Below, piece by piece: positions 1,544 through 34,398 of a stretch of DNA of 40,652 bases (position 1 is its first letter; every line of letters begins with the position of its first letter). A program made the translations under genes and the position numbers. The notes under the pieces were generated by a model. The model ran no database searches, had not been told where the DNA came from, and saw only the letters and a list, made by a program, of their open reading frames with translations. The stretch lies in the IMG/VR virus record IMGVR_UViG_2579778674_000010. One strand, given 5' to 3'. Source of the stretch: a virus (lineage: Duplodnaviria > Heunggongvirae > Uroviricota > Caudoviricetes).

Positions 1544-4500
1544 TTAACATTCCCCCATCACGTCGCATATTTAACAGATTGCCCTGCACCCGCTGATCAA
1601 CCATCCCCATAAGTGCTTTTATTGCCTGAGGGCCAATCTCTCCATTCTGGCCGTCATTTTGAATAGTGATTTGGTATACAGGGGCATAGGTAATATCTCC
1701 GCCTCCATTACCACTTTTACTATTAATAGCTCTGACACCAAGAGAACCATCGGAAGTTCGTGTTAATGGCATAATGGCTTCCGGACCAGCCTCACCAAAA
1801 ACACCAGCCCCTCTTGCAAAAGCAAAAAATTGCGGGGAATCATAAATACCGTTCGAATACGTGTTCAATGACGGAGACTCATAAACACCGCCCTTTGCAT
1901 TCGGAATAAATTTACTAATAGCACTCCCGATAGTTCCTAAAATCCCCCCAGAAGAACTGTTACTAATGCTGTCGAAAATCCCAGTAATTGAAGCCTTTAA
2001 TGCTATTCGACTAAGATCCGAAATCACGGAAGTAGCGAAAGAACGAAAATTTGCCTTGCCTGTCGTGACAAAATCACCCAGCGCATCGGTCATTCCATCA
2101 AACATCTGAGTCGTGGTTGATTTTATCTGCTCACTGATATCCTTAGTGTCATCCAGCCAGTTATTGAATCCCTGGGAGGCACCACTAACCCAGTCTCCTG
2201 CCTGAATATCGAGCTGCTCGTTTTTCTGTCTGACAATTTCTTTTTCTCGTTCCAGAGCATCATTCAGAGCCTGCATTTTCTCCTGAAAAACATGATTTGA
2301 CATCCCACGGGATTTATCTGCATAGTCACGTTCAAGTTGCAGACGCTGATTGTTATATTCACGTTCAATCCGCAGTAATTCCTGCTGGCGTTGCTGATTT
2401 TTATCGCCAACCCCATAACCAGCAATCTGAATATCATACCCCTGTTGACGATTATCAATCGAAGCCTGCAATGAATCACGCCATGCAGCTATTTCGGCGG
2501 ATTCCTTGATTAGCCTGTTATTTTTTTCAATCGCAACATTTTTCTCCATCAACGCGGTTATTTCTTCCCGGTGTAAGAGAAGCGATTTCTGATCCTGGGT
2601 TAATTTCGATGACGGTCGTGACTCCAGGTCGGCAATCTGCTGACGCCACTTAACCAGTTCCTGTTCAGAGGAACTTAATTTAACGGTTAATTCAGTTTGT
2701 GAACTTAGTAACGCATTCTGTTGATTCAGATGATCAATCATTCGTTGGGCAGCATCATCCGAATAACCTTTCGCCTTTGGTTGCTTTGGATCTTTATAAC
2801 GCTCATTTATTTGAGCGATAAAATTATTATATTCTTCCTTTGAATACTGACTCTTTAGCTTTTCCAGTTTTGCAAGTTCACTAGCTCTCTGCTGCTCCCG
2901 GGTCTGATATTGTTTTGAAAAGGCATCTGCTCTCTGTCTGAGTTCAATTCCTTCCTGTTGTCGCTTGTTGTAATCGTTTATTGATGAATTTAGGACGTCC
3001 TGAGCAATTTTTTCTGCTTGAAGTACGCCCAATTGCTGCTTTAATCGTGCCAGCCTTTTATTTTGAGCTCCGCCATCTCCAATGCCACCTAACCCAAAAA
3101 CTCCGGGTCGGGTATTTTTTTCTATTTCATCAATTTGACGGAGAACATCTGAGATTTTTTGATCAAGGGAGGCCTCACGGCCAATGTCCAGCATGGAATC
3201 CCATGCCCATTTTGCGGAGTCTGCGACAGCTTTCCATGCAGTCTCAAGATAACCAAGATTTTCTTTAATCTGGTTGGTGCGCTGGATCATTGAGGATGAG
3301 TATGCTTCTGTCGCAATGCGGGCGGCCTCCTGCTGGTTCCCTTCATCCTGTAGCGCCTTAATCTGGTTATAAGTCGCAATTGTCAGAAAATGGTACTGAT
3401 CATTAAGTTTTGATATGGCACTGACAGGATCCTTTGCAATTTCATTGAAGTCATTAACCAGTTGTTCGGTTGATATTCCTGTTACTTCGCTCGTTTTTAC
3501 TATCGCTGTCGTCACTTGCTCCAGCGAACTGCTCGCTACCTTTCCCGAACGCACAAGCTGGTTTAATACTGCCGCCGCAGCGCCAGTTGTCGAATCAGCC
3601 GCATTCCCGGCACGTTGAGCTATATCGGCCAATTGCCCGCTGGTTGTCCCCAACTGATTTCCGGTAAGAATAAGAGATTTATTAAATTCGTCCTGCTCCT
3701 GAGAGCCTTTATAGTAAGCCAGTCCTAAGACCCCAACGGCTGCTGCGGCCAGGGTAAAAGGATTAATTAATCCCAGCACATAAGAACCTACACCTTTGAT
3801 CGCCGGGCCAATCCCACCGAACATATCTTTTAGCTGGCCGCCCTGCTGCATTAACACCATAAATGGCGACTGACCAGTGGACAACCCAACAACAATATCC
3901 GTCATTTGTGCAGGCAACATGCGCATAGCAAAAGCCGTTTGTTTTGCCGACATTCCGGTTTTGCTTAATTGTGATTGAGTAACCTCAAGCTCACTCCGCA
4001 TAGCACGAAGTTTTCCAGAAAGCTCCTCATACATTTCAGGAGAAAGCATCCCCTTAGCTTTTGCTTCATTGAGCTGTTTCTGTTGTTCTACCAGACGATT
4101 AAAAGCAGTTCCGACAGGATCAAGTTGAGCAATCAGACGTTGCAAAGCAACAACCTGTTCATCATGCGCTTTTGCTGCTTCTCGCTCTGCCTGAGCCTCT
4201 CCGGTAAGCTCTCGCCGTGTTTCCTGTATTTTTCGGCTATAATTCTCAAACTGAGAACCATTTATTTTCCCGGATGCAAACGCAGCATTAAGTTCATCAT
4301 GCTGTTGTTCAAGATTTCTTAGCGCCGCAGCCAGAGGGTCGATCTTGTCCAGCATTCTTTGAAAGGCCTGAGCCTGCGCTTCCTGCTGGGCGGCAGCAAG
4401 TTTTCCGGCCTTCTCGGCTTCTCTCTGCGCTTGCGCAACCCCGCTCAATTCCTCTGTGGTTTCATTAAGTTTACGGACAAGAAATTCATATTCTTCTTTA

Positions 4501-15974: not shown

Positions 15975-16226
15975 TTAGTCCTGATTTTTATCCACCCTGA
16001 GTAGTTCGCGCAGAGCAAAGGCATCCCCTTTTCTGGCAAGCTTAAACAATGCCGCTCGTAACTCGGCTTCACCTTTCGCTCTGCCCTTACGGATGGCCGC
16101 ATAAAAATCTGTCATTGCTTCCCGATTTTCTTTCAGTCGGTTCAGATCAACATCCAGAACGTCAGCGATTTGTTGTGCAGTCATCCGGCACGCTGCCAGA
16201 GACTCGACTTTCGAATACGGAATCAT
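15975..16226 (-). CDS. Small hypothetical protein, possibly HTH-containing
   Basis: 83-aa ORF directly upstream of the terminase small subunit. Start uncertain; it overlaps the end of the preceding ORF. Confidence 0.35.
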   Translation of the reverse strand: MIPYSKVESLAACRMTAQQIADVLDVDLNRLKENREAMTDFYAAIRKGRAKGEAELRAALFKLARKGDAFALRELLRVDKNQD

Positions 16227-17094
16227 TTGTCACCCCCATTGATATGCAGGGTGTCTTCTTCCTGTATTTTTCGTGAAGGATTTTTACTGCAGCGTTGTTC
16301 CAGGTGACCTGATGGTGAATGCGTTTATGGCTGGCACCCATCAGTGAGATTTTTACGCACGACGGCGCATACATGACGGAGTAAAAACTTTTAACGTAGG
16401 TTCCGGAATCCAGATACAGCTCGGTCATTCCGCCGCTGTTTTTCTGCGTCTGTTTCTGCCCTAACTGGACAGCACCGATCGTCATAAACAATTCACCACA
16501 GCGACCGAGATTCGTGTACGTATTCACATCCTCGTTAATGCGCCCCATGAATGAGAACGGTCGATCAACCGAACAGATAAAGCTGTTCATTGCCTTGCGT
16601 TTCACCCACGAAGCATGGCCGCCATTGTCACCAAGAAAATCCCCGCCCTGCGACATAGCGATGGAAAGAGCAGGTATTGATTCGTAGTACGCCAGCATTT
16701 CAGAAAGGATCGCATCCAGTTTCCTTATCGGAAAATAGGCCTGGTCATAGTTGCGATCCACCCGAAACTGGAACTCGTGATAATCATCATCGAGCTGAAT
16801 GAAGTATTTACACCCGACCAGTTTTGCCAGGTCGAAACAGGCATTACGGGCGTAAAAAATTGAGCGGCGGTCACAGAAATTATCGGCTTCGTCAAAACGA
16901 CTGGCGATATCGGCTTTGGAAAACACCAGCACCTGTTCACCAAATTCAGCCATGTACTGATTCCGTGTCTTATCTTCATCATCAACAACGATAAAAATTT
17001 TCCCGGTATAGCCAGCACGACGCAACGTCCGGTAAGTCAGAACTTTGTCCGGTCGCCCGTGAGTCAGAATAAAGGCGCAAAAATCATCACGCAT
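16162..17094 (-). CDS. Hypothetical phage protein, possibly nucleotide-sugar-transferase-like
   Basis: Start taken at MRDDFCAF (ATG 17094), giving an 8-nt overlap with the ParB-like gene. Contains FIVVDDEDK and IQLDDDYHEF acidic motifs reminiscent of DxD glycosyltransferases. Function not established. Confidence 0.45.
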   Translation of the reverse strand: MRDDFCAFILTHGRPDKVLTYRTLRRAGYTGKIFIVVDDEDKTRNQYMAEFGEQVLVFSKADIASRFDEADNFCDRRSIFYARNACFDLAKLVGCKYFIQLDDDYHEFQFRVDRNYDQAYFPIRKLDAILSEMLAYYESIPALSIAMSQGGDFLGDNGGHASWVKRKAMNSFICSVDRPFSFMGRINEDVNTYTNLGRCGELFMTIGAVQLGQKQTQKNSGGMTELYLDSGTYVKSFYSVMYAPSCVKISLMGASHKRIHHQVTWNNAAVKILHEKYRKKTPCISMGVTNDSVFESRVSGSVPDDCTTNR

Positions 17095-17878
17095 ATTCCT
17101 CCTCCTCACCACCATGCATGATCTCCACCATGCGCTGCGTCATCCGGACAAATCCATTTTCAATAGCCTGCTGATAATCAATGATCACCAGCGCCGACTC
17201 CTCGAAAAAACACTGAATTTCAGAGGGGGCGTGAGCGTAATAGTCCGCAATTCTGCTGAAATTAAACACCGTGTGACGTTCTGCCGCACACAGGAGGAAT
17301 TCCTCAATATCAGGCTCAAGGGACGCCGAACGTATCCGGCTGATCAGCTCCTGAGTTTTCGTATCGTCGTACAGTTCACTGATATCCGGTTTACCGCCCG
17401 ACGGCTCATAAACAGGCGTATCAATTTTCGTCGTATACGGCTCCTCCTCATTTCCTGTACCGGGCAAAACATCCGTCAACAGTTCATCAATTTCTGTCGG
17501 GATGAAGCCTGTCAGGGAGACATCAAAATCAGCATTGATTAGGTCCGACAGCTCCATCCGCAACAGATCTTCATCCCAGCCAGCATTCATCGGCAGGCGA
17601 TTATCTGCCAGGCGGTACGCCTTTTTCTGCTCATCCGTCAGGCCAGACAGAACAATGACCGGAACAGAATCCATTTTGAGCATTTCAGCCGCCATAACAC
17701 GACCGTGACCCGCAATAATTTCGCCCTTTTCGTCAATCAGCACCGGATTAGTCCAGCCGAATTGCTTAATACTTTCTACCAGTTGTGCCACCTGCTCAGG
17801 GCTGTGCGTCCTGGCGTTGTGCGCATACGGTGACAATTCTTGTAATGGGCGATAGACTATCTTTAATTTCTCGCTCAT
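17087..17878 (-). CDS. ParB-like nuclease domain protein
   Basis: 263-aa ORF with the ParB N-terminal domain signature (...NPVLIDEKGEIIAGHGRVMAA...). Lies upstream of the packaging genes. Probably the counterpart of the K-12 Rac gene ynaK. Confidence 0.75.
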   Translation of the reverse strand: MSEKLKIVYRPLQELSPYAHNARTHSPEQVAQLVESIKQFGWTNPVLIDEKGEIIAGHGRVMAAEMLKMDSVPVIVLSGLTDEQKKAYRLADNRLPMNAGWDEDLLRMELSDLINADFDVSLTGFIPTEIDELLTDVLPGTGNEEEPYTTKIDTPVYEPSGGKPDISELYDDTKTQELISRIRSASLEPDIEEFLLCAAERHTVFNFSRIADYYAHAPSEIQCFFEESALVIIDYQQAIENGFVRMTQRMVEIMHGGEEEEYA

Positions 17879-19610: not shown

Positions 19611-20075
19611 TTACTTTAAACACTGCTCGGTTATGTATTGCTGAGCACCTTCAAGTTGGGCCTGCATCATTACCAGTCGTTCCCGGAGGGTGAAATAATC
19701 CCGTTCAGCGGTGTCTGCCAGTCGGGGGGAGGCTGCATTATCCACGCCGGAGGCGGTGGTGGCTTCACGCACTGACTGACAGACTGCTTTGATGTGCAAC
19801 CGACGACGACCAGCGACAACATCATCACGCAGAGCATCATTTTCAGCTTTCGCATCAGCTAACTCCTTCGTGTATTTTGCATCGAGCGCAGCAACATCAC
19901 GCTGACGCATCTGCATGTCAGTAATTGCCGCGTTCGCCAGCTTCAGTTCTCTGGCATTTTTGTCGCGCTGGGCTTTGTAGGTAATGGCGTTATCACGGTA
20001 ATGATTAACAGCCCATGACAGGCAGACGACGATGCAGATAACCAGAGCGGAGATAATCGCGGTTACTCTGCTCAT
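19611..20075 (-). CDS. rzpR: Rz i-spanin
   Basis: 154-aa ORF with an N-terminal transmembrane segment and coiled-coil periplasmic domain; start overlaps the endolysin stop by 4 nt. Confidence 0.85.
19670..19855 (-). CDS. rzoR: Rz1 o-spanin lipoprotein, embedded in Rz in the +1 frame
   Basis: 61-aa ORF with a lipobox (LVVVGC) and a proline-rich mature region ([18 protein letters not shown]), lying entirely inside Rz. Confidence 0.8.
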
Positions 20076-20548
20076 ACCTCAATCTCTCTGACCGTTCCGC
20101 CAGCTTCTTTGAATTTTGCAATCAGACTGTCAGCCTTATGCTCGAACTGACCATAACCAGCGCCCGGCAGTGAAGCCCATATATTGCTGCAACGGTCGAT
20201 AGCCTGACGGATATCACCGCGATCAATCATCGGCAAAGCGCCACGCTCTTTAATCTGCTGCAGCGCTACAGCATCCTGACTTTCTGGAGAAAAATCTTTC
20301 AGGCCAAGTTGCTTGCGGTAGGCATCCCACCAGCGTGAAAGAAGCTGGTAACGTCCAGCGGCTGTTGATTTGAGTTTCGGATTTAGCGTGACAAGTTTGC
20401 GGGGGTGATCGGAGTAATCAGTGAACAGTCCGCCACCGACAATAACATCATAACCGTGATTTCTGGTTTTCTGCCGTCCGTTATCTGTTCCTTCTGACCA
20501 TGCCACCATATCAAGGAAAGCTTTACGCTGGGAATTAAGTGTCTGCAT
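20072..20548 (-). CDS. Endolysin, lambda R-type lytic transglycosylase
   Basis: 158-aa [36 protein letters not shown]...[28 protein letters not shown]..., near-identical in my recollection to lambda R. Confidence 0.9.
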
Positions 20549-20551
20549 TAA

Positions 20552-20893
20552 TTACTCCTTATGGGCACCGAACTTGTTACCGATGACCCTCATTGCCGCA
20601 CCACGAATAGCATCAACACCAATCAGCCCCACCCCACCACCAATGGCAACAGAAAGTGATTTAGGCCATCCGACATACTCAAGCGCGGATGCAAAGGTCA
20701 GCGTCAGAGCACCACAAAGCAGAATCTCAAGCGTTTTTCGTTTCCAGCCGCCGCCACAGCCAAAATAGGCAATGCGCAAACCAGCCATAATAATTGACAT
20801 AACCACTGCACCCAGCGGCGTATCTCCACGCCACCAACTTTGTAAGAGTTCCAGTAAGTCAGGCCAGGAATGAGGGGCATTGTGCATTTTCAT
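20552..20893 (-). CDS. Holin (class I-like, three predicted transmembrane segments) with MKM dual-start motif
   Basis: ATG at 20893 is preceded by GGAGGTGAGG; a second in-frame ATG lies two codons later (MKMH...) and an upstream GTG gives the track start. Three hydrophobic segments. Immediately upstream of the endolysin. Confidence 0.7.
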   Translation of the reverse strand: MKMHNAPHSWPDLLELLQSWWRGDTPLGAVVMSIIMAGLRIAYFGCGGGWKRKTLEILLCGALTLTFASALEYVGWPKSLSVAIGGGVGLIGVDAIRGAAMRVIGNKFGAHKE

Positions 20894-20991
20894 AAGCCTC
20901 ACCTCCGAGAGTTCGGATGGTGCTAAGTGTAAGATTCAGGCTCTCAGGCTTGCTAACAAGAAGTCGAGGATGTTTCCGGAGCCTAACAACG

Positions 20992-21016
20992 AAAAAGCCC
21001 CGGGACATGCCGGGGC
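20992..21016 (-). terminator. Intrinsic-terminator-like hairpin upstream of the holin
   Basis: Plus gccccgg-gacatg-ccggggc at 20997..21016 preceded by aaaaa; minus-strand RNA has the 7-bp GC-rich hairpin followed by UUUUUCGUUGUU. Confidence 0.5.
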
Positions 21017-21110
21017 CAGATGGAGTGCCAGATTAAGCTTCTGGCGGTATATACTCGTGTTTGATATCGTTAAATCGCCAAAAGTAACAATTCAAACAAA
21101 GAGGATTTTT

Positions 21111-21272
21111 ATGTCTGAAAAAAACAAACCACAAGGTGAAAATAAACCTCAGCAACCCGTGGCACCAAAACCAACTCCAACACAAAGTACTACAGACTTT
21201 GCTACACGTCGTGTTTTTGTTGGAGATTCTGCCGACTCAGTCATTGAACATATAAAAAAACAGCCGAGATAA
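21111..21272 (+). CDS. Small hypothetical protein (53 aa), proline/lysine/glutamine-rich
   Basis: ATG at 21111 preceded by AGAGGA. MSEKNKPQGENKPQQPVAPKPTPTQSTTDFATRRVFVGDSADSVIEHIKKQPR. The longer track ORF from 20880 has no such ribosome-binding site. Resembles small prophage cold-shock-associated proteins but not confirmed. Confidence 0.5.
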   Translation: MSEKNKPQGENKPQQPVAPKPTPTQSTTDFATRRVFVGDSADSVIEHIKKQPR

Positions 21273-21810
21273 ACATCGCCGCTACCGGAGCAAGGATGGT
21301 ATACATCCTTGCTTTATCGAGACTCGTGCGGATTTTCTCATTTTCCAACAGTAACTCTCTTGCTGTATCACTCAAGTCAACAAGGCGATACCTTCGTATA
21401 AGCGGCAATAACTTATCAGGTCCTAAATATCCTGCATCAGCGAATATTTTAAAGCTCGAGGGCTCCATATCCTTATATTTTTCATGATATAGATGATCAG
21501 GAGGGGCATTGATCAGGCCCCTAACCTTCACAGATAAACCAGTACATACCAAGTAAATAGCGCACCATGTCCATAGTAATGTAAATGTGGTAATTCCGGC
21601 GGTGAGAAAATCGAAATTAGTTTTCTGTGTCAGCAATAAAAAAGATGAACCAATTCCAACAATCTGAATGTTCAGAAGTTTGTATCCATTCTCAACATTG
21701 GTTTTGTTAGAAAGATGAATCTCTCGTATCGTCTCTTCCCCTTGTTTTTCAAGATAATCGACGAGCTCATCATCTACTCCTAAAAAATAATCTTTAGGTA
21801 GTTCTCTCAT
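21241..21810 (-). CDS. Hypothetical membrane protein (cargo between Q and the lysis genes)
   Basis: 189-aa ORF with GGAGGTGAG before the ATG. Two long hydrophobic stretches (IVGIGSSFLLLTQ..., ILAPVAAMFISAVFLYVQ). AT-rich codon usage. Confidence 0.6.
   Translation of the reverse strand: MRELPKDYFLGVDDELVDYLEKQGEETIREIHLSNKTNVENGYKLLNIQIVGIGSSFLLLTQKTNFDFLTAGITTFTLLWTWCAIYLVCTGLSVKVRGLINAPPDHLYHEKYKDMEPSSFKIFADAGYLGPDKLLPLIRRYRLVDLSDTARELLLENEKIRTSLDKARMYTILAPVAAMFISAVFLYVQ
21289..21318 (+). terminator. Hairpin plus U-run after the small plus-strand gene
   Basis: gcaaggatg-gtata-catccttgc (9-bp stem) followed by tttatcg, 17 nt after the stop at 21272. Confidence 0.45.
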
Positions 21811-21915
21811 CTCACCTCCACATCCTGTACTGAAAACAATTTTACCAGAATGTCTCGATTCTAGGTATTCCGCCAGGAATCGCGCTCCAGAAATGAAACA
21901 TCAGGTTCGCCAGTA

Positions 21916-21947
21916 CCAGAAACAACAAAACCCGCTCAATGGCGGGT
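21916..21947 (-). terminator. tR-prime-like intrinsic terminator downstream of the Q-like gene
   Basis: Plus aacccgc-tcaatg-gcgggtt at 21928..21947; minus-strand RNA has the hairpin followed by UUGUUGUUUCU, about 85 nt after the Q-like stop. Confidence 0.5.
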
Positions 21948-22031
21948 TCTGGTAAAGTTCATGCGCTTGGTTCGCCTCGCGATACAGCTTTGCGAAGCAT
22001 ACCGGAATTGAAGCAGTTTATGCGTAAAAAA

Positions 22032-22574
22032 TCAAGCTATTTTTTGAGCAAATGATTCTCGCATGGGAATATATAGGGCATACTCAGCAACAGCCAACCA
22101 ATTAGCAATTCGCTTTTCGCATGTGCTAAAACACCACTCAGGATGTGCATCATTTAGCAATTCAGCCATTTTGCGCTTAGTCATCCCCCGTCCTTCATAC
22201 CGTTGCCGGAGGACACTAATCAATCCAGGATGCTCTGCCAGCACCTCACTTATGACTCTATCAATACATAACGCCTCTGCATCAGTACAATGCGCCAGCC
22301 AGGTCTTTTGCTTGCCGTTGATCATCTCTCGCAAAAACGCTTCCAGCTCAGGTTTCTCTATTCCCGCTTTTTTCATCCTGCGCAGGGCTTCATTGACGGC
22401 TGTTTTCGTCAATTTTTTGGATGCCAGCAACTGGTTAAACATATTTCCCGTCTTACCGCCGCCAATATACGACCAGCGCCCCCACATGCGCAGTTTTCCC
22501 TGAATCCAGACACTTTCCAGCGTGGTGAGACGAAGGTGTTCCCCGCTTTTGCCTGTATTTGTTGGGTAAATCAT
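22032..22574 (-). CDS. Late-gene antiterminator Q-like protein (probable)
   Basis: Start taken at MIYPTNTGK (ATG overlaps the stop of the upstream gene as ATGA). Contains an LRMWGRW segment; last gene before the terminator and lysis cassette. Family assignment is from position and partial motif recall. Confidence 0.55.
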   Translation of the reverse strand: MIYPTNTGKSGEHLRLTTLESVWIQGKLRMWGRWSYIGGGKTGNMFNQLLASKKLTKTAVNEALRRMKKAGIEKPELEAFLREMINGKQKTWLAHCTDAEALCIDRVISEVLAEHPGLISVLRQRYEGRGMTKRKMAELLNDAHPEWCFSTCEKRIANWLAVAEYALYIPMRESFAQKIA

Positions 22575-22861
22575 AAATAACCTTCCTTTCTCCAGATTTC
22601 TTGTGTGCGAAAAACACCTTCTGCATGCATCAGGCGTAATTCTTCTTTGGTGTAATCGCTGGTTTTTACCCGCCCGTCGATTAAATCGTGGCATGAGCTA
22701 CAGGCAATCGCTGCCTGCATATCGTGTGGTTTTGTCGCTGTTCCGCACGTCCCCGCCAGCCTGTAATGCGCCAGCACAGAGGTTTCGGGATTGTGATTGC
22801 AGTAGCCAGGGATTCTGATTTGGCACATCTGGCCTTTAGCCGCTTTACGTAAATCCACCAT
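22571..22861 (-). CDS. YbcO-like (DUF1364) nin-region protein, putative Zn-binding nuclease
   Basis: 96-aa ORF MVDLRKAAKGQMCQIRIPGYCNHNPETSVLAHYRL...IACSSCHDLIDGR, resembling the DLP12 YbcO family; four Cys. Confidence 0.6.
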   Translation of the reverse strand: MVDLRKAAKGQMCQIRIPGYCNHNPETSVLAHYRLAGTCGTATKPHDMQAAIACSSCHDLIDGRVKTSDYTKEELRLMHAEGVFRTQEIWRKEGYL

Positions 22862-23460
22862 TACGCAAACTCCAGTAACTGTGCGGCCACATTTTCGACT
22901 TCCTCCGGAGAGGAAAATTTACGGAACAGGATCCAGTTCCACAGCACATTCAGTACAGATTTATAAACCTGCTGAAACTCGGTTTCGTCCATGTTCGCAA
23001 ATGCGATAGATTTTGCCCTGCGCCCACGACTACCATCAGGATAAATATACTCGGTGTAAAATCCTGCCTGAATGGTTACCCACTCGCGGAAAGCGTCAAA
23101 CGACTTTAGCAATGCCGTATCCCGGGTTCTGCATGTCGCAACGGTATTAAGGTATTGCTCTGCGGCATCACTCAGGGCTGGAGTGTGTTCCCGACCTACT
23201 GATTCGCACAGGTAATCAACGAAGCCCGATACCAGTTTTCGTTCGCGAGGCGTGATCGCCCCACCGACCGGAGTCCAGTAATCGAATCCCAGTTGCAGGA
23301 GTTTGAAAAAACGCTTGTGGAATGCGTAGTTACGCACACGCTTAAAGTCTGCGTGTATCCACTCACCTATTTTGATTTGATGCAAAAAATCGCAACTCTC
23401 CGGCGTCGCCGGGAGAAGTAAACCAGAAGAGGTTTGTTTGACCAGTTGTATATGCGCCAT
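22861..23460 (-). CDS. YbcN-like (DUF1367) nin-region protein
   Basis: 199-aa ORF translationally coupled to the YbcO-like gene; recalled as the DUF1367 family found in nin regions. Confidence 0.55.
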   Translation of the reverse strand: MAHIQLVKQTSSGLLLPATPESCDFLHQIKIGEWIHADFKRVRNYAFHKRFFKLLQLGFDYWTPVGGAITPRERKLVSGFVDYLCESVGREHTPALSDAAEQYLNTVATCRTRDTALLKSFDAFREWVTIQAGFYTEYIYPDGSRGRRAKSIAFANMDETEFQQVYKSVLNVLWNWILFRKFSSPEEVENVAAQLLEFA

Positions 23461-24218: not shown

Positions 24219-24262
24219 TTGACATAACCCTCAAAAACACGCATTTATAATGCATGTTTTTG
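24219..24262 (+). promoter_or_regulatory. Putative promoter with an overlapping inverted repeat upstream of the YeaR-like gene
   Basis: TTGACA at 24219..24224 and TATAAT at 24246..24251 (spacing longer than optimal). Imperfect inverted repeat tcaaaaacacgcat-ttataa-atgcatgtttttga spans the -10 and ends at the ribosome-binding site. Confidence 0.35.
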
Positions 24263-24273
24263 AGGAGGTGGTT

Positions 24274-24612
24274 ATGACACACAAGAGAATTCCTAAAGAT
24301 TGGGTAATCAAACGCTCAACTCCGTTCTTCACAAAAGAGAACGTACCTTCAGCGTTATTAACACATCATAATACAGCAGCAGGTGTTTTTGGGCAGTTGT
24401 GCGTAATGGAAGGTACTGTAACATATTATGGTTTTACTGATGAGAATGCTACTGAACCGGAGATAAAAGTAGTCATTAATGCTGGCGCTTTTGCAACAAG
24501 CCCACCACAATACTGGCACCGTGTTGAACTAAGCGATGATGCTCAGTTTAATATTAACTTTTGGGTCGCTCCAGACTTCTCGGGCGAAAAAGTCTATAGC
24601 ACCAAAAAATAG
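24274..24612 (+). CDS. YeaR-like DUF1971 protein
   Basis: ATG at 24274 preceded by GAGGAGGTGG. MTHKRIPKDWVIKRSTPFFTKE...GQLCVMEGTVTYYGF...AGAFATSPPQYWHRVE...FNINFWVAP aligns in my recollection with E. coli YeaR (RSTPFW..., SVMHGAV.YLGY, AGQFAVFPPEKWH, FNIDFFVAP). Confidence 0.7.
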   Translation: MTHKRIPKDWVIKRSTPFFTKENVPSALLTHHNTAAGVFGQLCVMEGTVTYYGFTDENATEPEIKVVINAGAFATSPPQYWHRVELSDDAQFNINFWVAPDFSGEKVYSTKK

Positions 24613-27700: not shown

Positions 27701-28001
27701 TTTAATTACCTTATATATCCAAACTCTTAATTTTCTCTTTTTTACCATAGGATTAATCCAAAATAAAGACCTTGTTGACTAAACCCTCATGTACAAAATG
27801 CACACTTACTCAAAAGGATCTGGAGGCAATCTCGACCTCCATGATTTAGTTCCTAGGGATAAGCAGAAATCTAGCACTGGATTAAAATTTAAAAATAATA
27901 ATCAATAGGTTATAATGGTTTTTATTCGCATCCATGGGATCTGCTGCTGCCCGCATGATGTTGGATGCGACGGCGCTGGCACGACCTCACCCGGTGAAAC
28001 G

Positions 28002-28448
28002 ATGAAACGCGAAAGGGTTGTTCTTCGGGAAGGTGCAGTTGGACTTTCAATCGATGACGTTGCAAAAGAGGCTGGCGTCAGTAAGGCAACGGTAATGTAC
28101 GATCATAAGTCAAAGCAAGATTTGCTCAGCGATCTCATCAGTCGCCTTATGCCAGTAGAGGAGGAACGTGTTCAGCAAGCGATAGCGGAAAGTAATAATA
28201 CCCCACATCCCGCACTCTATGGGCGAATTATTTCAGCCAGTAATGCTCTCAGTCATACTGAGAGAGCAGTAGTGCTGGCGGTCAGCGAATCGTTAACTAA
28301 CGATACGAATATCAGGGACACCATGCGTTCCTGCACAAACAAAGATTTGGATGAGATAAAAAGAGGACCAAAACCAGACGTTGCCGTCCTGGTATATTTG
28401 GCGTTATCTGGTATCTACTGCCAAGAATTTTTTGATTTTTACAAATGA
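28002..28448 (+). CDS. TetR/AcrR-like HTH protein, possibly truncated
   Basis: LSIDDVAKEAGVSKATVMYDHKSKQDLL resembles the TetR N-terminal HTH signature. Only about 148 aa from ATG 28002, shorter than typical TetR proteins. Divergent from the adjacent three-gene operon. The Cys-rich track extension from 27915 was not adopted. Confidence 0.4.
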   Translation: MKRERVVLREGAVGLSIDDVAKEAGVSKATVMYDHKSKQDLLSDLISRLMPVEEERVQQAIAESNNTPHPALYGRIISASNALSHTERAVVLAVSESLTNDTNIRDTMRSCTNKDLDEIKRGPKPDVAVLVYLALSGIYCQEFFDFYK

Positions 28449-33316: not shown

Positions 33317-33472
33317 ATGCAAAAAATCGACCTCGGCAACAACGAATCCCTGGTGTGCGGCGTGTTCCCCAACCAGGATGGAACGTTCACTGCCATGACG
33401 TATACCAAAAGCAAAACATTTAAAACCGAAACTGGTGCGCGCCGATGGTTGGAGAAGCACACAGTAAGCTAA
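33317..33472 (+). CDS. ydaF: YdaF small protein (51 aa)
   Basis: Manual translation MQKIDLGNNESLVCGVFPNQDGTFTAMTYTKSKTFKTETGARRWLEKHTVS, directly after ydaG. Confidence 0.5.
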   Translation: MQKIDLGNNESLVCGVFPNQDGTFTAMTYTKSKTFKTETGARRWLEKHTVS

Positions 33473-33957
33473 CGATTAAAACGTCTACTCCTGCTGTTCC
33501 AGAATAACTTCATAAAATGGGAGTATTTTTCGGTGACGAGATAATAAGAACAGTTTGCGCTATCACTCTGATGTTGAATGATGCCCTTCCGTTCTAATTT
33601 TTTCATAACCGGGTTACGGCAAGGAGAAGTGATAATAAGATTTCCTGTTTTAAGGAAATCTTTAAATACAGCGATTTCTTTCTCAGATAAACGAAGCAAT
33701 ACTCGTTGCTCTGGTAGTAATGAATAATGCTTTTGAATATGTGCTCGCAATCTTGAGAAGGAAATGGCGACCACGAAAGAAAAGGCAAAAACGATAATCT
33801 GAAAGAGCCAAGGTATTTCAGTATAAGCATTGAATGCGACAGTAAACTCTTTCGGTATCAGCCAGAGAGTGAGACCAAAAATGATAATCGTATACATAAG
33901 TCTTTCGAGTGGCTCGTTAGCAAAAAGTTTCAACAATGGAGTAAATACATCCAACAT
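33469..33957 (-). CDS. sieB: SieB superinfection exclusion protein
   Basis: Start taken at MLDVFTPLLKLFANEPLERLMYTIIIFGLTLWLIPKEF..., recalled as Rac SieB (162 aa). The 41 extra N-terminal codons of the track ORF were not adopted. Confidence 0.85.
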   Translation of the reverse strand: MLDVFTPLLKLFANEPLERLMYTIIIFGLTLWLIPKEFTVAFNAYTEIPWLFQIIVFAFSFVVAISFSRLRAHIQKHYSLLPEQRVLLRLSEKEIAVFKDFLKTGNLIITSPCRNPVMKKLERKGIIQHQSDSANCSYYLVTEKYSHFMKLFWNSRSRRFNR

Positions 33958-34398
33958 ATCAATAACTCTCAACTGTAAGGGTATTGAAATGTTAACACAA
34001 GCTCTCGCTGTAGGGGTATAGCCGAGACCACCGAAGCCCGGAGGTGGTGAAATAAAACCGGGCACAACACGAAGGCGCATTTCCGATATCCATAAAGAGT
34101 CGGTCTTGTCTGTTAAATTTAAATGGTGGGAGTGCGCCTCCGGTTGTAAATAACGACATTGCTGTGTGTAGTCCTGGCGGCATCAGTTTTTTTCTTGAAG
34201 TTCGGCTGATGTCCGCCCTTTTTAAAGTGAATTTTGTGATGCGGTGAATGCGGCTAAGCGCACGTGGCACAGTTAAAAGTCATGTTAGTCCTTATTGGTT
34301 TGGGTGGGAAAGCCGACTGTAATTGTTAACTGGTTGCAGTCACCTGGAGGCACCAGACACCGCATCAACAAAGTTCATTTGTAAAAATGGAGATAATT

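Follow-up and report, generated by a model that had tools for sequence, protein, structure and literature searches.

Which kind of unit separates the late antiterminator gene from the lysis genes in a Rac-like lambdoid prophage, passive cargo of the late transcript or a module with signals of its own? The question is raised by a 40,652-nucleotide (nt) stretch of viral DNA (IMG/VR record IMGVR_UViG_2579778674_000010; Caudoviricetes), hereafter the window, in which two convergent and overlapping genes occupy this junction: M189, which encodes a membrane protein of 189 amino acids (aa) on the late (minus) strand, and S53, which encodes a protein of 53 aa on the opposite (plus) strand. The overall architecture, in which a Q module with its tR'-like terminator is followed by a terminator-insulated sense/antisense moron and then by the lysis genes, is well supported. 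That the M189/S53 cassette constitutes an autonomous two-gene moron at the Q-to-lysis junction of the prophage is a reading to which we give about even chances. The layout is ordinary for prophage cargo and of a known kind, but the gene pair itself is uncharacterised, real and widespread.

The window corresponds to a Rac-like lambdoid prophage of Escherichia coli whose late genes all lie on the minus strand, running from position 23460 to 18016 in the order DUF1367 (NinB-like), YbcO, DUF1133-type Q, the M189/S53 region, lambda-S-type holin, endolysin, Rz/Rz1 and TrkG. This order places the Q-like gene after the nin region and ahead of the lysis cassette, and all the elements that an original prediction, made from the letters of the DNA alone, had listed for this region are present on the strands described, with one coordinate changed (Table 1). 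A 1.2-kb stretch around M189/S53 is matched with 99.8% identity in four induced E. coli phages, and the cassette occurs in 223 of 5426 complete E. coli genomes (about 4%). Its GC content is 0.38-0.43 over positions 21150-21900, against about 0.50 in both flanks, and this AT-richness, together with the presence of the cassette in that fraction of genomes, is the signature of a moron. Morons are reportedly defined, after Juhala et al. and Hendrix et al. in 2000, on phages HK97 and HK022. Like those elements, the M189/S53 segment is found in some relatives only, differs in base composition from its flanks, and has a promoter candidate upstream and a terminator downstream; unlike them, it consists of two convergent, overlapping genes and has a structured antisense 3' region. 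As to the signals expected of a moron, its own terminator (T2) is well supported and its own promoter is represented by conserved -10 elements only.

Table 1. Coordinates of the features of the late region, in positions of the window
Feature	Position	Strand	Basis
Q-like late antiterminator gene, DUF1133 type, 180 aa	22032..22574	-	PF06576, PF06530, phrog_753
Candidate late promoter of the Q module	21996..22035	-	conservation behind divergent DUF1133 Q genes; analogy with lambda pR'
T1, intrinsic terminator, tR' equivalent	hairpin 21951-21926, U-tract to ~21916	-	terminator scan; folding; comparison
M189 candidate promoter TGGTAAAAT, extended -10-like, no clear -35	21839..21847	-	conservation
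M189, 189 aa, three hydrophobic helices	21241..21810	-	open reading frame (ORF); AlphaFold2; GGAGG at 21819-21815
S53 transcript 3' hairpin, 12 bp, within the part of M189 coding for its third hydrophobic helix	21287..21315	+	folding; conservation
S53, 53 aa, hydrophilic, Pro/Gln/Lys-rich	21111..21272 including stop	+	ORF; GAGGA at 21101-21105; phrog_14506
S53 candidate promoter TGATATCGT, extended -10 (TGnTATnGT)	21062..21070	+	conservation
H1, hairpin in the M189 3' untranslated region, loop UUUUGGCGAUU	21054..21103	-	folding; co-variation
H2, second hairpin in the 3' untranslated region (GCCAGA...UCUGGC)	21027..21045	-	folding; comparison
T2, intrinsic terminator ending the moron	hairpin 21017-20996, U-tract to 20988	-	terminator scan; folding; conservation
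Lambda-S-type holin, first gene of the lysis cassette	20552..20893	-	PF05106 at 5.9e-27; annotation of the 99.8%-identical phage
Endolysin	20072-20548	-	ORF list; annotation of the 99.8%-identical phage
Rz	19611-20075	-	ORF list; annotation of the 99.8%-identical phage
Rz1	19670-19855	-	ORF list; annotation of the 99.8%-identical phage

The central observation concerns the small gene. From 88 collected M189 loci, 34 non-redundant cassettes were obtained, 28 belonging to a main family and six to a subfamily located in the tail-gene region. All 34 contain a convergent ORF of 47-64 aa that is preceded by a ribosome-binding site and overlaps the stop region of M189 by 20-35 nt (32 nt at the 3' end of M189 in the window). 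The encoded proteins share a layout that comprises an N-terminal MS(E/Q)xNKP, a Pro/Gln-rich linker, a DFxxxRxxVGDSA motif and a basic tail, and the ratio of nonsynonymous to synonymous substitution rates (dN/dS), determined outside the overlap, is about 0.37. Moreover, remote M189 homologues with 28-32% identity (P0146 and P0135) keep a convergent, overlapping, Pro-rich ORF of 45-53 aa. Because the frame is kept in every cassette, has this low dN/dS and recurs beside remote homologues, S53 is a real gene and the invariant partner of M189, and its antisense position is not incidental; its conservation bears out the predicted convergent 53-aa gene, with the start moved from 21108 to 21111. On this comparative ground, M189 and S53 are an obligate pair across genera and at several positions in phage genomes, and the 53-aa gene and its relatives deserve to be called as real genes in annotation.

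Some observations on small ORFs accompany this picture. The start of S53 contains an A7 tract (21117-21126, codons 3-5), which is A6 in locus L030 and A8 in locus L101, both lengths shifting the frame; in L101 M189 is frameshifted as well. These changes in length could reflect sequencing error or slippage-prone variation. At locus L107 (4540-4625) a Pro-rich ORF of 27 aa with a strong ribosome-binding site converges on a high-GC remote relative of M189 and ends at the stop codon of that membrane-protein gene, with an HTH_3 repressor adjoining; this ORF may represent S53 in a much shortened version. Locus L109, whose highly divergent 'homologue' lies outside any phage context, was left out of the evidence.

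M189 itself was correctly foreseen as a membrane protein with a strong ribosome-binding site (GGAGG) ahead of its gene. Its AlphaFold2 model (predicted local distance difference test score, pLDDT, 82) is a long three-helix bundle (residues 14-62, 68-92 and 134-188) in which hydrophobic segments fall at about residues 45-62, 68-92 and 169-188; by the positive-inside rule, the N-terminus and the loop formed by residues 93-165 would be cytoplasmic. The first hydrophobic helix contains an invariant motif rich in Gly and Ser, VGIGSSF. Homologues of M189 form 104 clusters at 90% identity, which span Escherichia, Klebsiella, Citrobacter, Enterobacter, Serratia, Yersinia, Proteus, Providencia, Morganella, Pantoea and Sodalis, and an exhaustive search gave 100 clusters when the identity was set at 50%; among phage records, M189 is present in five only. 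The homology search that had been proposed for both proteins thus yielded unnamed relatives and PHROG families without a function: the database names of more than 200 homologues are all 'hypothetical' or 'membrane protein', and M189 matches phrog_11870, a family of unknown function. Longer members of the family have no fused domains; they carry either N-terminal extensions without a Pfam match, which are probably mis-called starts, or a low-complexity repeat (P0180).

Searches for an identity of the two proteins agree with the earlier statement that no toxin is recognised here. Neither M189 nor S53 has a match in Pfam or NCBIfam, PADLOC gave 0 families at E <= 1, and all matches of a sequence profile search of the PDB had E > 0.2; no toxin family is matched by either protein, and a cargo of Stx-like toxin was rejected. 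When 71 remote M189 members were compared with Pfam, scattered sub-threshold matches only were obtained (8xMP, DUF6249, YLATT and PycTM). An identity with PycTM was discarded (one of the 71 members, E = 0.016, 16.1 bits against a cut-off of 27.2), and a flag for PycTM that had been precomputed for P0146 did not recur at a significant level. The same holds for YLATT, with three of the 71 members and a best E of 0.054; no effector domain of the PycTM, SLATT or YLATT type reached the Pfam gathering score. The window contains a genuine SieB (PF14163) elsewhere, at 33469-34080 on the minus strand; a relationship of M189 with it was rejected, as hhalign of the M189 family profile against this protein gave a probability of 0.1%. 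Assignment of M189 to a holin or antiholin family was likewise dropped, there being no Pfam holin match and the pair occurring also in immunity and tail regions.

The distribution of the pair over phage genomes is informative about its dependence on the late region. In most cassettes the pair has a Q-like gene on one side and lysis genes on the other. The upstream Q proteins fall into five PHROG families (753, 127, 304, 943 and 79), and the holins and endolysins downstream differ by locus (lambda-S type, phrog_20 and others). The tail-region subfamily, found in Klebsiella- and Citrobacter-type phages, follows the major tail protein, DUF6246 and a Rha-like gene and precedes the tape-measure gene, and the remote relative P0146 sits in the early-left (immunity) region with a cI-like repressor adjoining. 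Because it is combined with at least five Q families and is found in the tail-gene and immunity regions, the M189/S53 pair is not tied to Q or to lysis. Throughout the main cassettes, the tail-region cassettes and P0146, M189 is co-oriented with the neighbouring phage genes and S53 is opposed to them.

An additional layer of organisation resides in the RNA structures predicted for both strands. On the M189 strand, the 3' untranslated region contains the hairpins H1 and H2 followed by the terminator T2, which jointly give z = -4.4. H1 is the antisense of the ribosome-binding site, leader and -10 element of S53; six of its pairs changed on both sides, a co-variation that is reached by 2 of 500 shuffles, and in 24 of the 28 main-family cassettes the M189 strand gives the more stable fold. 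The stem of H2 is GCCGC/GCGGC in other cassettes, with pairing kept. T2, which had been noticed as a terminator-like hairpin just upstream of the holin, folds with -16.4 kcal/mol (z = -2.6; 4 of 200 shuffles fold equally well), and in its consensus structure six of the eight pairs change on both sides, and there are many G-U pairings on the late strand. Under strict criteria, 20 of the 28 main-family cassettes have T2 and the six tail-region cassettes do not. In three loci (L045, L048 and L050) T2 is missing and a tRNA gene on the late strand directly follows the H1 region, about 100-140 nt beyond the S53 start. A terminator also lies upstream of M189 in at least 24 of the 34 cassettes, even where Q is kilobases distant (L004 and L005).

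On the S53 strand, a 12-bp hairpin within M189 folds with -18.4 kcal/mol (z = -3.7), recurs in all 34 cassettes and, in the majority of these, folds more stably on the S53 strand than on the other. The suggestion that S53 has its own terminator thus stands as regards a conserved hairpin, but the U-tract is weak (UUUAU) and the terminator scan did not list the site. Since H1 and this intragenic hairpin have opposite strand preferences, each transcript apparently has a strand-specific 3' structure within the territory of the other gene. The predicted S53 unit (about 21077 to about 21315-21320) would lie wholly inside, and antisense to, the M189 unit (about 21832 to about 20990), so that the two predicted transcripts would overlap; the coding sequences share 32 nt, and the S53 hairpin is inside M189. 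S53 on the plus strand, preceded by a conserved extended -10 element, is placed between M189 and the holin on the minus strand, which is the layout of a noncontiguous operon or excludon; the minus-strand genes around it presumably form an operon.

Both genes have promoter candidates whose activity is suggested by their conservation. A regular expression retrieved a TAA[A/G]AT element in 30 of the 34 cassettes, the divergent tail-region subfamily included, at 34-41 nt ahead of the M189 start codon; its counterpart in the window is TGGTAAAAT. For S53, each of the 28 main-family cassettes has TGnTA(T/C)nGT at a distance of 37-48 nt ahead of the start codon, represented in the window by TGATATCGT. 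Other candidates were considered for S53 and dropped: a sigma-70 promoter with a -35 element; a TAAC-based -10 element, since the TAAC positions show the co-variation of a paired stem; and, close to H2, a sigma-54 site, which lacks the -12 element.

Upstream of the cassette, the Q-like protein matches PF06576 (DUF1133) at 2.8e-109 and phrog_753, named 'anti-termination protein Q-like'; its link to PF06530 (Phage_antitermQ) is remote, with 28.0 bits against a cut-off of 26. The sole paper found by literature search calls DUF1133 a Q antiterminator on HHpred alone (PMC8136144), and among the literature searched no DUF1133 protein has apparently been tested as an antiterminator. T1 begins 80 nt past the Q stop codon, close to the 85 nt at which a hairpin had been predicted, and folds with -16.1 kcal/mol (z = -4.0; none of 200 shuffles folds equally well). 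The region contains four terminator-like sites against 2.4 +/- 1.6 in shuffles, a count that is not significant alone, and T1 and T2 are convincing because of the comparative data rather than of the number of sites. Behind DUF1133 Q genes that are 52-100% identical to that of the window, a conserved stretch is found that consists of TTGnnn, 17 nt, TTCAAT, 6 nt, TA(N)GCT, TCGCAAAGCTGTATC and the T1 hairpin. In the window it reads TTGATT (22035-22030), a 17-nt spacer, TTCAAT (22012-22007) and then the -10-like TATGCT (22001-21996). By analogy with lambda pR', TTGATT/TTCAAT would be the late promoter and TATGCT a -10-like pause element in the initial transcribed region, from which a terminated leader of about 80 nt would result; a consensus promoter scan did not list this candidate, and no Rfam family was found in 20500-22700. 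The tandem -10-like hexamers (TTCAAT and TA(N)GCT) that, with TCGCAAAGCTGTATC, precede the terminator in divergent DUF1133-type Q genes look like the late promoter plus pause signal of this Q family.

Matches to T1 only, with other cargo adjoining, account for about 370 of the 592 matched E. coli genomes. Because the Q-to-T1 stretch precedes quite different cargo, T1 is regarded as the tR' equivalent of the DUF1133 type of Q; together with the promoter-like stretch, it travels with DUF1133 Q as one module in these comparisons and thus acts as the tR' of that module. The earlier description of T1 as a tR'-like terminator is therefore retained, but T1 is part of the Q module and not a feature created by the cargo. 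As in lambda (Q, pR', 6S RNA/tR') and in Stx phages such as 933W, the order is nin-region gene, Q, promoter (a candidate in the window), short terminated transcript (predicted in the window), variable cargo, holin, endolysin and Rz/Rz1. In contrast to lambda and 933W, Q is of the DUF1133 type, the cargo is not a toxin, and it has its own promoter candidates, its own terminator and a gene on the opposite strand.

Different cargo behind the same DUF1133 Q and T1 is exemplified by three E. coli prophages (L010, L011 and L012). In O157:H7 it consists of tRNA-Ile, tRNA-Arg, TerB, DUF3927 and a SASA esterase, and in a Rac-like prophage of enterotoxigenic E. coli (ETEC) of tRNA-Thr and tRNA-Gly, before essD. 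In L012 (E. coli CM2010-0578/1, 2400-3260, matching window positions 20988-21951), T1 and H1-H2-T2 flank another convergent, overlapping gene pair, a late-strand gene of 76 aa located 12 nt past T1 and an antisense gene of 92 aa that re-uses the TGATATCGT leader; neither protein has a Pfam match. The H1-H2-T2 module is present in 254 E. coli genomes. Its re-use in L012 thus indicates that the leader/terminator module is portable and that the slot between the terminators is a site of cargo exchange.

In the working model for this region, unmodified RNA polymerase starting at the late promoter would stop at T1 in the lysogen, M189 and S53 would be transcribed from their own promoters and restrain each other by RNA pairing or polymerase collision, and T2 would block read-through from the moron into the holin gene. 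From what is known of lambda Q, the Q-modified polymerase is expected to read through both terminators. After induction it would pass T1 and T2, which would raise the sense M189 RNA, silence S53 and allow expression of the lysis genes; S53 would then be a gene nested antisense in the late operon, in a noncontiguous operon. The structured H1 loop facing the S53 leader and the S53 terminator inside M189 are examples of the wiring such an antisense switch would use. Prophage-encoded membrane or abortive-infection functions under the control of cis-antisense RNA include sieB/esc of P22 with the antisense RNA sas, and the bsrG/SR4 type I pairs of Bacillus subtilis prophages. As in sieB/sas and bsrG/SR4, the predicted transcripts of M189 and S53 converge and overlap at their 3' ends; unlike sieB, M189 is not SieB-like by the hhalign comparison described above. 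Type I toxins have fewer than 60 aa and their antitoxins are non-coding, unlike M189/S53.

Further precedents are two phage systems for which a noncontiguous operon has been demonstrated experimentally. Tai/Ati is located in the Q operon of phi80, where Q expression lowers the product of the antisense gene (PMC11364771). There the immune gene, the larger of the two, runs antisense and the small gene for counter-defence sense, whereas in the window the larger M189 is sense and the small S53 antisense. There is no sequence relationship between the two systems; homology of M189 with Tai, or presence of M189 in phi80, was rejected, since M189 is absent from that phage, and the paper never mentions transmembrane segments for Tai (PMC11364771). 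Tha/Ith of the staphylococcal phage 80alpha, whose two genes are transcribed in a mutually exclusive manner (PMC11087260), resembles the pair in its layout, with a larger effector gene in the orientation of the operon and a small inhibitor with its own promoter nested antisense. Tha differs from M189 in being a cytoplasmic HEPN RNase, encoded in the cI operon of a Gram-positive phage, and is unrelated in sequence. Both Tha/Ith and Tai/Ati count in favour of a conflict function for M189/S53, as precedents for a prophage defence gene with a small inhibitor nested antisense.

In fact, M189 has been disrupted repeatedly while S53 remained intact, by frameshifts (P0033 and L007) and by insertion sequence (IS) elements (P0002 and L008). 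One M189 frameshift variant is found in 37 blocks of a contig collection, and further IS or frameshift cases occur in Symbiopectobacterium and Leclercia. One form common in E. coli carries an IS3-family element whose insertion point falls precisely within the loop of the hairpin inside M189 (L111, 2500-2651; window position about 21300); the product is P0002, a 176-aa variant without the third hydrophobic helix in a cluster of 102 member sequences. Repeated loss of M189 with S53 intact fits a costly effector. Given the slots typical of such genes, the obligate pairing and this repeated inactivation, M189 may be a membrane effector that serves conflicts between phages or between phage and host, through abortive infection or the exclusion of superinfecting phages, with S53 (as RNA, protein or both) as its regulator or antidote. 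This assignment is the least certain part of our interpretation and is held with low confidence. We tentatively propose, as a possibility that may well prove wrong, that M189/S53 represents a previously undescribed, widespread family of prophage conflict modules in which a three-helix effector is checked by an opposite-strand partner with mutual antisense transcription as the switch, which would serve abortive infection, superinfection exclusion or toxin-antidote addiction, and which would be mobile among the moron slots of Enterobacterales and, remotely, of other Gram-negative phages.

Several observations weigh against the working model and the conflict function. Among the families searched, those of defence, toxin-antitoxin, holin and exclusion proteins gave no match to M189 or S53, and comparisons of fold retrieved nothing more specific than generic helical bundles. 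None of the three promoter candidates was picked up by the consensus promoter scan, and both moron candidates are without a recognisable -35 element. Locus L030 has an intact M189 and an S53 that is frameshifted in the A7 tract; this may be a homopolymer sequencing error, but if it is real the S53 protein is not an essential antidote. The disrupted M189 copies could simply reflect prophage decay. Finally, M189 would go up and S53 down under lytic transcription of the late or early-left kind, which is awkward if M189 is toxic to phage development.

Other explanations divide the same evidence differently. The original prediction viewed the locus as the position of Q-dependent cargo, and a purely Q-dependent cargo as in the case of stx would be one in which M189 is made only on read-through of T1 and serves the lytic cycle or is released at lysis, S53 being a minor antisense regulator. 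The slot with variable cargo in related prophages stands and agrees with this, as do the co-orientation of M189 with the late operon, its position directly after T1, and the late-strand gene of L012, which leaves no room for a promoter behind T1. A simple dependence on Q is not supported, because M189 and S53 have conserved -10 candidates of their own, the TAAAAT element being at a fixed distance from M189 in cassettes outside late operons too, because the cassette is insulated by terminators, one preceding M189 even with Q kilobases off, and because the pair is also found beside a cI-like repressor and in the tail-gene region; we judge such a cargo distinctly improbable. A function in the timing of lysis, with M189 as an antiholin, holin modulator or membrane-priming protein of the adjacent holin, would suit a membrane protein of small size whose gene directly precedes that of the holin in most loci and is presumably co-transcribed with the lysis genes after antitermination. 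It is very unlikely, given that T2 separates M189 from the holin, that M189 pairs with unrelated holins or lies far from lysis genes, and that it matches no holin or antiholin family.

M189 might instead be a lysogenic-conversion membrane protein that alters host physiology (ion balance, envelope stress or colonisation), regulated by S53. The prophage does carry other host-physiology cargo such as TrkG, the moron architecture points to expression in the lysogen, and the pair has no match among the defence families searched. There is, however, no positive evidence for a role in host physiology, the immunity region and the tail and late moron slots are positions typical of exclusion and defence genes, M189 is repeatedly disrupted, and the tight antisense pairing resembles self-immunity circuits; we consider conversion unlikely. 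That S53 is non-coding, so that only the antisense RNA matters or the ORF arises incidentally from the M189 3' untranslated region, is the least probable of these alternatives: the ORF is indeed short and of low complexity, the opposite strand is highly structured there and the A7 tract varies in length, but the frame stays open behind a correctly spaced ribosome-binding site in all the divergent cassettes, the C-terminal motif is kept while the DNA diverges, in line with the low dN/dS, and a similar small ORF persists beside distant M189 homologues.

If the conflict function holds, the pair would be a compact two-gene addition to prophage defences, carried by about one in 25 complete E. coli genomes and by many prophages of Klebsiella, Citrobacter, Serratia, Yersinia, Proteus and Providencia. 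It would also be the third sequence-independent case of an effector and a small partner arranged sense/antisense in a phage operon, and would lend weight to the view that such wiring is a general means by which accessory functions are coupled to the lysogeny-lysis switch. If the conflict function is wrong, what still stands is T1 in the DUF1133 Q module, the terminator-bounded cargo slot, and the portable H1-H2-T2 module of promoter, leader and terminator re-used by another gene pair.

Some further features of the window deserve mention. The holin begins with Met-Lys-Met (20885-20893), the dual-start arrangement of lambda S (holin/antiholin), and its upstream leader is common to the window and to the holin of a Trabulsiella prophage (L002). 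Two accessory genes are located on the strand opposite to the late genes, encoding a DUF1971 protein (24250-24612, plus strand) and a TetR-like regulator (27915-28448, plus strand). Directly downstream of TrkG, a ParB_N-domain protein (17087-17878, minus strand) is followed by a TET-associated glycosyltransferase (TAGT) family protein (16162-17115, minus strand), and these neighbours in the Rac-like prophage may be a DNA-modification pair.

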